DNA of 64,000 nucleotides from Podarcis liolepis. Taxonomy: Eukaryota. The DNA lies in the NCBI GenBank assembly GCA_965112155.1, contig OZ218109.1; one strand, 5' to 3'. Position 1 is the stretch's first letter; every line of letters begins with the position of its first letter. Positions 39,601-42,600 of the stretch are shown in pieces. The notes below the pieces were generated by a model. It searched no databases. It saw nothing but the letters and a program-made list of their open reading frames with translations, and had not been told where the DNA came from. A program made the position numbers and the translations under genes.

Positions 39601-42600
39601 AAAAACTCATGAGCTGCTGTAAAATAGTGGCCACCCCAACTCTTAGTGAGCTGCTTTCCAGTTGAGGTTTGGGGGAGAAGAAGGAAATTCCAAGCCTGAG
39701 ATGAGGGGGATGGGGATGGGGAAGTGTTGTGTTGAACCAGAGATGTTTTGCTTTATTTCTCCAAAGATTTAGACCTTTTCCAGGAGAAATGTACCTTTTA
39801 GATTCAGTCGGGAGCAGCTGCAACTCACTGGTTAGCTTGCAGAACTGCATCTGCCTAGGAATGTTGTGTGTGCAGCATTGGCTTAGAGCCTCAGAACTTC
39901 TTAGGGGAGCAATGCTGAGCTCTGCATCTTTTGCTTGGGAGGCCGCTGAGAAGGGTAGGATTCATTTGCTAACATTTGCGGTTCTTTACGTCCTGAAGAA
40001 TCATAGAATTGTGGAGTTTCAAGAGACCCCGAGGGTCATCTAGCTCAACCCCCTGCAGTACAGGAATCTCAACTCAAGGTGGCCACCCAACCTACCTCTG
40101 CTTACTCCCAGTACGATTAGAAAATGGTGTGCTAAAGGGAGCCATGTTTTGGACACTTGTCAACATTGGGGTTGGAGGGCAGGAGGTTGCCAAGGGTTGC
40201 TATGCTGTTCTTTAATCTGCAGAGTGAACAGTTAGAAATCACTAGTAAAATTTGCCCTTTTGTCAGAAAAAAACATAAACTGGGCCCTGCTGGATTAAAC
40301 AAACTTTTTGCCTTTCCCAGCATCCTTTTCCCCACAGTGACTCACCAGACCAGATGCCTTTGGGAAGCCGACAGCACATGCATGCAGTAGCGCTCTCCTG
40401 CTCAGGTTTCCCAGGAGCTGTTATATAGAGGCACATTGCTTCTTATACTGGAGATAATACCATGCCTAGTAGCCATCGATAGCCCTATCCTCTATAAATT
40501 CATCTAAAGTCGGTCTTTGCTTTTATAGATGATGTGAAAGTATGGAACTGCATTCCCTTCTGCAAACGAGTAAATCACATTTGTTTTCTTATTGTCAGAT
40601 GGAACCAAGAAACCTGGCGATAGTATTTGGTCCAACTCTTGTGAGATCATCTGAAGACAACATGACACACATGGTTACCCATATGCCAGATCAATACAAA
40701 ATTGTAGAAACACTTATCCAAAAAGTAAGTGAGTTTATTTCGCTGTCCCAGGAAAAATTATGCAGGCAGAGCTGCTCGCTTTAGCTAGACTGGGTTTGAT
40801 TCTGATTCTTCTTTTTTGATCTGCTCAATCCTCCTTTCCTTATATTTCGGCGTCGTCCACATTTTCATGATTTCACTTTTGTGGGATTTTTCACTTCTTT
40901 TATTTTAAATTGTAGCATGACTGGTTTTTCGCAGAAGATGATGCTGAAGAGCCCCTTGTAAGTACTGACCCTTAACTATTTGGATTCTGCCTCTCTTAAT
41001 TTAGGCCCAACAGTAAAGTATCTCTACAACGAGCACATATTCTCCATATGTGTGAAACTTGCTCATCACAAGCAACTTTCTACCCCTCTACTACCGTGCA
41101 GTAATGAAAATAGCAGATAATGTGCCACTCACTGTGAAGTTGTCTCAAATAGAATAGTTCCCCCTCTCCATTTCCCTCTGTTTTGGGGCGTGCCCCCCCT
41201 AAAGTTTTACGGAAATGTTCGATTTATTGAGGAATTGGTTCTTAGGTGAATAATTGCAGTTTACTAAATACTGTTGAATCGTGATGAAACCTCTGACTTT
41301 GACACAATGATGAAGAGATCTTTGTTTATTAACTGCAGACAGCAGTTCAGGAGGAAAACACAGTAGAATCTCAGCCAGTGCCAAACATAGATCATTTACT
41401 TACCAACATTGGAAGGACGGGAGTATCTCCTGGAGACGTATCAGGTAACTCTTGCCTGGACAGTGTTAGTCTGTAGGCTAGAAAACTCTCTTCTAATGAT
41501 TTGTTATAATCTTCTATTTCCTTTTATTTGCTAATAACTTGATTTCCCCCCCAATCTAAATGATTGAAAGTGTTTTGTTTAAAGGAGAACAATGGTTAGG
41601 CATGTTGCATGCATGTTCTATGTTCGGGATGCATTCTTGGACAACCGAATTGTAATTCTTAGACCATGAGAACTATGCATGCTCACGATTGTGTCATTAA
41701 CCATGGTTTTTCGTGTAATTCTTACCACGAGGTGAACAGGATTCCTGCTAGTGTGTAAGTGGTTGATGGGATGGCAGAAAGCTTTAGCATCCACGTTCTG
41801 TTCAAATTGCACTGATTTGCAAAGTCAGGAAGGCTTAAAGTTCACTTTGTTTGAAAACTAACCACAATTTTTCCCTAAGTATTTTGTAATAGGGTATGTT
41901 TCATATTTTGCTAAATAAGTTGCTTCTATTTAATGACTGCCACCTTATTATTCTGCTAAGTACTACTACTGTTGCAAAGCTCTTACTCTCTTGGTGACGT
42001 TTTCCCACACTGCCACCATAACTGTTTCACTAACCAAGCATGTTGTTGATCACAAATGTTATCCCTTTGTTTCTAGTTTGTGTTTTAGTCCGTAGAAGAC
42101 TTTTTTCAGCATTTTATTGAAACAGTCCCTCTATCCTGATGTTGAAACAGGAGAAGTGGGAGGAGTCTATCACACGGTGATGTCACTAGTGGACTCTGTG
42201 ATGTCACTTATGGACAGCTGGAACTGTAGGAAGAAGGAGGACTGTTGCCCACATTGTAGCTGCCTTGTCTGCAGAAACCCCCGTTTCTTGTAAATGCACA
42301 AAGAATTAGTTGATCTGTACTGTAAATTTTTTTCTTTTAAAGAGTATTTGAACAGATCAGTGCTACTTTTTAAAAGTGTTTCTGCTGTTTCTTGTTATTT
42401 CTGAAGCAGACCCTGAGGAGAAATAGCATGGTATGGTCCACCAGTCTTTCTAGTCATTAGCCATGTGTCAGAAGGGGCATGGCATGGGGCTCAGCTCATT
42501 AATTCTGAGGTTGGGATGGGGACCCCCTGAGAGTTTGGAGAATGGCAAAGTCAAACATCGTTTGGTCACTGTGCTAGCCCCTCCTTATCCCCTTTATAGC

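Follow-up and report, generated by a model that had tools for sequence, protein, structure and literature searches.

The closest described counterpart of the exon considered here is a skipped exon of ARHGAP21, listed in a supplementary table of PMC11390650 as a one-to-one orthologous event of 274 nt in human and 275 nt in mouse, lying between exons of 106 nt and 32 nt. Its tabulated coordinates are chr10:24,590,205-24,590,479 in human and, for mouse Arhgap21, chr2:20,853,957-20,854,232 (PMC11390650, PMC13078869; GENCODE M25), and both GENCODE M25 and long reads from E18.5 contain the skipped-exon form with its downstream junction (PMC13078869). The exon is thus already annotated and tabulated, and is known as a splicing event or as a predicted NMD exon; in the portions of these tables consulted, the protein tail that it would encode is not discussed. 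No study of that tail was found in a search of the open literature.

Published inclusion of the mammalian exon is 0.003 for astrocytes; for neurons it is 0.13 (cortical, DIV4), 0.57 (cortical, DIV10), 0.40 (hippocampal) and 0.22 (human, from stem cells) (PMC11390650). In the mouse tissue rows the embryonic values are 0.13/0.10 (E11) and 0.24/0.30 (E18), adult brain reaches 0.83/0.82 (cortex), 0.77/0.77 (frontal lobe) and 0.72/0.69 (cerebellum), and non-neural tissues stay within 0-0.26 (PMC13078869). On these published mouse and human values inclusion is higher in neurons and brain, as would be expected of a neuron-regulated cassette. Arithmetic on the published values (inclusion multiplied by TPM) puts the included form at ~24-52 TPM in adult brain and takes the skipped form from ~36-40 TPM at E11 to 5-7 in cortex. 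Treatment with KCl lowered inclusion within 3-4 h, from 0.57 to 0.17 in DIV10 cortical neurons, from 0.40 to 0.17 in hippocampal neurons and from 0.22 to 0.055 in human neurons (p 0.0003, 0.0006 and 0.0002, respectively), the change being merely -0.08 in DIV4 and mouse ESC neurons (PMC11390650). A frame-preserving 30-nt exon of ARHGAP21 is co-regulated with the cassette in mouse and human (neuron-high, KCl-low), falling from 0.80 to 0.35 with KCl, and may be the ARHGAP21 exon presented in Figure 2K of the source paper; of the three KCl meta-analysis rows in the supplement of PMC12129014, at least two concern this 30-nt exon and not the cassette.

The window analyzed here is a stretch of 64,000 nt from Podarcis liolepis (contig OZ218109.1), the parts of ARHGAP21 below being on its plus strand. 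Window exons matched the Podarcis muralis ARHGAP21 model at mostly 87-100% identity, and a genome search with 41990-42340 returned one match in the lizard's own genome. A counterpart of the 30-nt exon probably lies at about 29320-29380. A reading made earlier from the sequence alone (the sequence-only reading) had proposed that an alternative last exon of ARHGAP21 lies in the intron after the constitutive exon 41339-41444, which ends in phase 1 and whose 106 nt equal the length of the human and mouse upstream exon. The acceptor, frame and stop that it described were all recovered: an AG is present at 42149-42150, the exon starts at 42151 with the phase-1 G supplied by exon 41339-41444, and 47 residues are encoded before a TAA at 42291-42293 (coding part, 42151-42293). 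The junction at this acceptor is found in database models and in a 1093-aa protein from the Logan collection. Overlooked at that time were the donor and a second acceptor of the same exon. The GT at 42431 (donor GTATGG, 42431-42436) is the top-scoring donor within 42200-43300 on a rough matrix, and gives an exon of 280 nt (42151-42430); a pyrimidine-rich internal acceptor lies at 42409.

With this donor the exon and intron sizes are 106/706/280/879/32 in the window, as compared with the published 106/745/274/903/32 in human and 106/702/275/888/32 in mouse, the penultimate constitutive exon (43310-43341) having the same 32 nt in all three. The window exon agrees with the annotated skipped exon in where it lies within the gene, in the sizes of its neighboring exons and nearly in length, a match drawn from architecture (sizes and layout); the putative lizard boundaries follow from architecture and splice signals. 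The exon is best read as an internal cassette with its own stop rather than as a last exon. What stands of the original proposal is a real and conserved exon, probably translated, with its acceptor before 42151; the word last does not, since an alternative last exon would have no downstream donor, one is found at 42431, and the mammalian counterparts are skipped exons spliced to the 32-nt exon, although additional use as a terminal exon may occur. That the same splicing takes place in the lizard is very probable. Inclusion would leave the coding part of the last exon (44722-46443) untranslated and replace a tail measured at 584 residues, in agreement with the approximately 585 residues predicted to be lost just after the GAP domain. 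A human variant of 248 nt that shares the donor (chr10:24,590,205-24,590,453) is listed as differentially skipped in a multiple sclerosis lesion (PMC11593658 Table 2); at the corresponding offset the window lacks an AG.

The AGs at 42076 and 42109, which lie closer to the upstream exon and had been raised as a route to a poison exon, do lead to near-immediate stops (after 14 and 3 residues, respectively), but that route misfits the 274/275-nt mammalian exon. The read-through database protein P0012 places the equivalent acceptor and donor 275 nt apart by implication, which fixes the acceptor at 42151 and disfavors the closer AGs. AGs at 42076-42125 as main acceptors were likewise ruled out by the mammalian exon size, and no hairpin hiding them was found (folding z -0.08). 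The poison-exon reading is nevertheless alive by another route, as the stop lies 137 nt upstream of the exon's own junction and 169 nt upstream of the last junction, both beyond the 50 nt that mark a poison (AS-NMD) exon. Conservation in the read-through proteins P0004 and P0012 extends to the intron segment 41990-42145, which holds a branch-point-like motif and a number of AGs. The motif itself, a putative CACTAAC branch point, is present at 42028-42034 as had been described, separated from the acceptor by ~117 nt that include seven AGs. TGCATG, placed by the same reading near 41606-41615, was found at 41606 and 41610 and a third time at 41676, that is, three copies in the (T)GCATG cluster at 41600-41681 against 0.40 expected, overlapping and hence not independent. 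Around the exon GCATG occurs five times upstream (0.89 expected) and three times downstream (1.11 expected), with two copies ~50 nt beyond the donor (42477-42486) as candidate inclusion enhancers by motif match. (T)GCATG is the RBFOX motif, which makes RBFOX a candidate regulator of the exon. Elements with 16-nt internal repeats were observed at 43780-44075 and 22800-23800; the former has inverted ends and resembles a short non-autonomous DNA transposon.

Conservation of the peptide in other vertebrates, proposed as a check on the original claim, was observed from teleosts to goat: 17/20 candidate proteins from a peptide search matched at 77-100% identity (tuatara, birds, Podarcis, gecko, goat, koala and several teleosts), and the UniRef model A0A670JB15 from Podarcis muralis ends in a peptide identical to that of the window. 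Named UniRef and NCBI models fuse the upstream exon directly to the peptide and most end there; among 120 listed of 446 upstream-exon matches, at least 13 run into the tail and at least 11 of these end with it. Proteins bearing the names of the two teleost copies, 21a and 21b, both carry the tail (by name, not by tree). A Logan-only protein of 1,093 aa (P0044), encoded on a 6,004-nt contig, ends in the tail and aligns with the window in 14 separate exon stretches, and is therefore likely to derive from a spliced fish mRNA; to judge from this protein sequence, the junction from upstream exon to tail is likely used in a fish. When 1.84 billion representatives were searched with a profile of the tail, 13 matches were obtained, 12 of them the ARHGAP21 tail and one an unrelated low-complexity protein; by sequence, no ARHGAP23 or invertebrate tail was among the 13.

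Of 32 tails, 25 stop exactly at residue 47, two carry a whole-codon insertion and five run past the stop. The 44 distinct substitutions had a mean BLOSUM62 score of +0.64, compared with -0.64 +/- 0.22 when bases in the window codons were changed at random (0/20,000 draws). The sample is biased, since searches at the protein level bring back intact frames; only the first 43 columns of run-on tails were counted, and the null used single-base steps. None of the 44 affected a cysteine, as against 13% expected (P about 0.002). The six-cysteine pattern was found in 46/47 tails from a pattern search, the exception being a model that leaves the exon early, and the Trp, Arg and Lys of the tail are invariant while its His varies to Gln. 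A poison exon would show no selection on its peptide; here, in this biased sample, substitutions are conservative, length is fixed and the cysteines are invariant. Beyond the stop, lengths of 137, 131 and 132 nt were observed, the differences not being multiples of three. As the flanking non-coding DNA is conserved as well, constraint at the RNA level contributes.

Several database models depart from this pattern. Five of them (P0009, P0081, P0129, P0161 and P0169) take in only a portion of the exon and then continue in frame, probably because predictors forced a coding signal through weak donors. The in-frame cassette through the GT at 42283 in the gecko model P0009 was rejected as a probable prediction artefact, its donor score being very low (-8.8). 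A donor at 42290 was also set aside, as it is weak and absent from the published table rows consulted. In a koala protein of 138 aa named 'ARHGAP21-like' (P0015) the junction is already joined and several changes are non-conservative, and it could be a retrocopy of the short isoform. In a Logan protein of 177 aa (P0006) the tail continues past the usual stop into the frame of the microexon described below and ends at the microexon stop, either as a lineage variant or through a contig error.

The internal acceptor at 42409 defines a candidate microexon of exactly 21 nt (42410-42430) using the same donor, and a 21-nt mouse event using the cassette's donor is listed in PMC13078869. It would encode five residues, with a stop 36 nt before the last junction, and should thus be a third ending which escapes decay; no database protein ending in its peptide was found among the 120 listed of 446 matches. 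At 42380-42430 an 11-bp stem is predicted, in which the pyrimidine tract of the microexon pairs with the end of the exon beside the donor, and on this folding model the stem could act as a selector between the long exon and the microexon. The post-stop non-coding part (42294-42430, 137 nt) has predicted hairpins, with a folding z of -2.4 and 3/200 shuffles as stable, for a region picked after the fact.

The two features of the tail to which attention had been drawn, its six cysteines and its paired 21-nt units, are both present. The cysteines lie at residues 26, 32, 33, 36, 38 and 41 of the 47, within a cysteine cluster with a short basic patch (residues 26-41, 42225-42272). The units (42177-42197 and 42198-42218) agree at 16/21 bases; a recent 21-nt duplication was rejected, as both units occur in fish too and are either ancient or mere helical periodicity. 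The two resulting 7-residue units fall in a predicted amphipathic helix at residues 6-23 (42165-42218), whose hydrophobic moment is 0.42 compared with 0.15 for shuffles (0/20,000, with the best window chosen). A low-confidence structure model (mean pLDDT 52) also places a helix at residues 6-23 and leaves the cysteine part without a fold (pLDDT ~50-60). The polar face of this helix is acidic/serine and not basic, and two acidic residues come directly after the basic patch, itself short. A conserved cysteine cluster beside an amphipathic or basic segment, as would be expected of an S-palmitoylated membrane-anchor tail, is found. Neither a known family nor a confident fold pointing to a zinc finger or other metal-binding module was seen in Pfam (none above cut-off, Focal_AT at E 0.2), the PDB (sole match NSE2 at E 0.48, below any cut-off), the structure model or the Atlas (no usable match). 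A CaaX-prenylated end was rejected, the last cysteine being seven residues from the end and not four, as was an NPxF-type motif at the tail end, which is disrupted in many fish tails. In two supplement files of PMC5498535, which possibly do not include its main tables, no S-acylation entry for ARHGAP21 was found.

With respect to decay of the included mRNA, the cassette is a predicted NMD exon in PMC13078869, flagged NMD_in with scores of 0.54 in mouse and 0.38 in human, and the flag recurs in that table's column for Yan et al. 2015. Cycloheximide changed inclusion in human iNeurons by +0.013 (p 0.61; PMC13078869). This is weak evidence, baseline inclusion in those cells being unseen and the 30-nt exon co-regulated with the cassette having dropped by 0.30 in the same treatment, which could mask a stabilization. 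The cassette is marked 0 in the Zhuravskaya cycloheximide column of the same source, and no entry for it was found in 13 supplement files of PMC11188260. The exon is likely protein-coding, and the included mRNA likely escapes most nonsense-mediated decay.

The explanation that we propose is that a 280-nt stop-carrying exon of ARHGAP21 is spliced in by neurons, as are its mouse and human counterparts, so that the RhoGAP would end in an amphipathic helix and six cysteines in place of its 584-residue tail. The new tail is predicted to be a palmitoylated membrane anchor. As the short form keeps the PDZ, PH/ARF-binding and RhoGAP domains, GAP activity would be relocated rather than removed, and depolarization would return new transcripts to the long form. 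The lost tail presumably binds alpha-catenin, of which our literature search gave no confirmation. That a functional protein is made we consider quite likely, and, given the protein, it is somewhat more probable from its sequence that the tail would be a lipidated membrane anchor than a metal- or partner-binding module. The reading as a whole, comprising a neuronal exon, an mRNA escaping most decay and a short RhoGAP with a membrane-anchor tail, is held tentatively, at a little under an even chance. No protein-level or lipidation support for the tail was found in the literature and supplements covered.

Were the short protein made, its tail might instead be a metal-binding or partner-binding module, with the helix on a partner or on the GAP domain and the cysteines holding zinc. 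Six invariant cysteines at fixed spacing together with invariant Trp, Arg and Lys would suit such a module, such constraint exceeding what an acylation site usually needs, as would a helix with an acidic/serine rather than a basic polar face. We nonetheless regard it as unlikely, given a cysteine part unfolded in the model, a Pfam search with nothing above cut-off and a sole PDB match at E 0.48, a His that varies to Gln and a single residue between the two CxxC pairs, which is short for a classic zinc knuckle. Were the exon mainly terminal, as in the sequence-only reading, with polyadenylation in the intron that follows, escape from decay would likewise be accounted for, and rMATS inclusion values are compatible with terminal use too. 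Ensembl-type models end at the stop, and AATAAA occurs at 42899 and 42995 in that intron; two copies are, however, unremarkable against 0.65 expected, and the downstream junction recorded by GENCODE M25 and by E18.5 long reads, with a donor and second acceptor at the conserved exon end, argues against this arrangement, to which we give the least weight of all.

The two remaining alternatives concern the fate of the mRNA. It may be a plain poison exon by which neurons destroy ARHGAP21 mRNA, the peptide being a by-product of constraint at the DNA level. The two NMD_in flags (PMC13078869 and its Yan et al. 2015 column), the conserved flanking intron and post-stop DNA and the fall of the skipped form from ~36-40 TPM at E11 to 5-7 in cortex are all consistent with this, but about 70-83% of steady-state brain transcripts include the exon in the published mouse values, no cycloheximide response was seen in human iNeurons or recorded in the Zhuravskaya column, and the conservative substitutions, fixed length and invariant cysteines point to selection on the peptide, so that we judge it very unlikely. 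Alternatively, decay may be coupled to translation, the mRNA being stored, translated in bursts and then subjected to NMD to give pulses of short protein, in which case the KCl drop would be partly decay. Coding selection, NMD-type geometry, high resting inclusion and a fall within 3-4 h of KCl all fit; that the frame-preserving 30-nt exon falls equally with KCl (0.80 to 0.35) points to altered splicing instead, and this course of events, too, seems rather improbable.

ARHGAP21 is loss-intolerant and has been associated with focal epilepsy and developmental disorders, the variants tied to epilepsy being described on the long reference transcript (PMC13101686). If most adult-brain transcripts encode the short form, neuronal work has addressed a minority isoform. 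Variants in the last exon (for example p.Glu1640Ter, its location inferred from position) would spare the short form and upstream stops would hit both, while variants inside the cassette exon could go unnoticed. The exon is among the decay exons listed for loss-intolerant genes in a paper that nominates splice-switching targets (PMC13078869); skipping of the cassette would alter the protein made and not just its dose. It also offers a clean test case for the way in which a neuronal mRNA can remain abundant despite two junctions beyond its stop. In its widest form the claim would be that adult vertebrate neurons make, as their main ARHGAP21 protein, a short lipid-anchored form as yet unstudied, that its mRNA breaks the 50-nt rule yet escapes decay, that activity restores the long form within hours, and that an activity-controlled relocation of a Cdc42/RhoA GAP, kept since the fish-tetrapod split, has been miscatalogued as a poison exon. 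This we regard as possible but doubtful.

When compared with known systems, the cassette shares with conserved poison exons (AS-NMD, PMC13078869) an internal and conserved position, a stop more than 50 nt before a junction and conserved flanks. It is unlike them in its very high steady-state inclusion, in the absence of an observed cycloheximide response and in its constraint at the amino-acid level. In the paralogue ARHGAP23, truncation at residue 1138 presumably falls at the homologous junction. In the short isoform Q9P227-2 the C-terminal region is cut at this residue, and among the further short forms of ARHGAP21 given by the same source this tail is not named (PMC10249030). Like the 21-nt microexon of ARHGAP21, Q9P227-2 ends after the GAP domain in a few new residues, but it has neither helix nor cysteine cluster, and no ARHGAP23 protein matched the tail profile. 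With respect to outcome, the brain-specific palmitoylated isoform of Cdc42 is a case in which neuronal splicing gives a Rho-pathway protein a cysteine-containing lipid-anchor C-terminus; that isoform ends, CaaX-type, in a genuine alternative last exon, whereas the ARHGAP21 exon is internal and without a CaaX box. The STREX exon of the BK channel (KCNMA1) is repressed by depolarization. It is a conserved alternative insert in which a palmitoylated Cys-Cys preceded by basic residues targets a cytosolic region to the membrane (PMC3256903). STREX is frame-preserving and internal to its protein, whereas the ARHGAP21 exon ends the protein and its basic patch is shorter. The two showed no relation in sequence, and the resemblance, in helix, basic patch and Cys-Cys, is one of design and not of membership.
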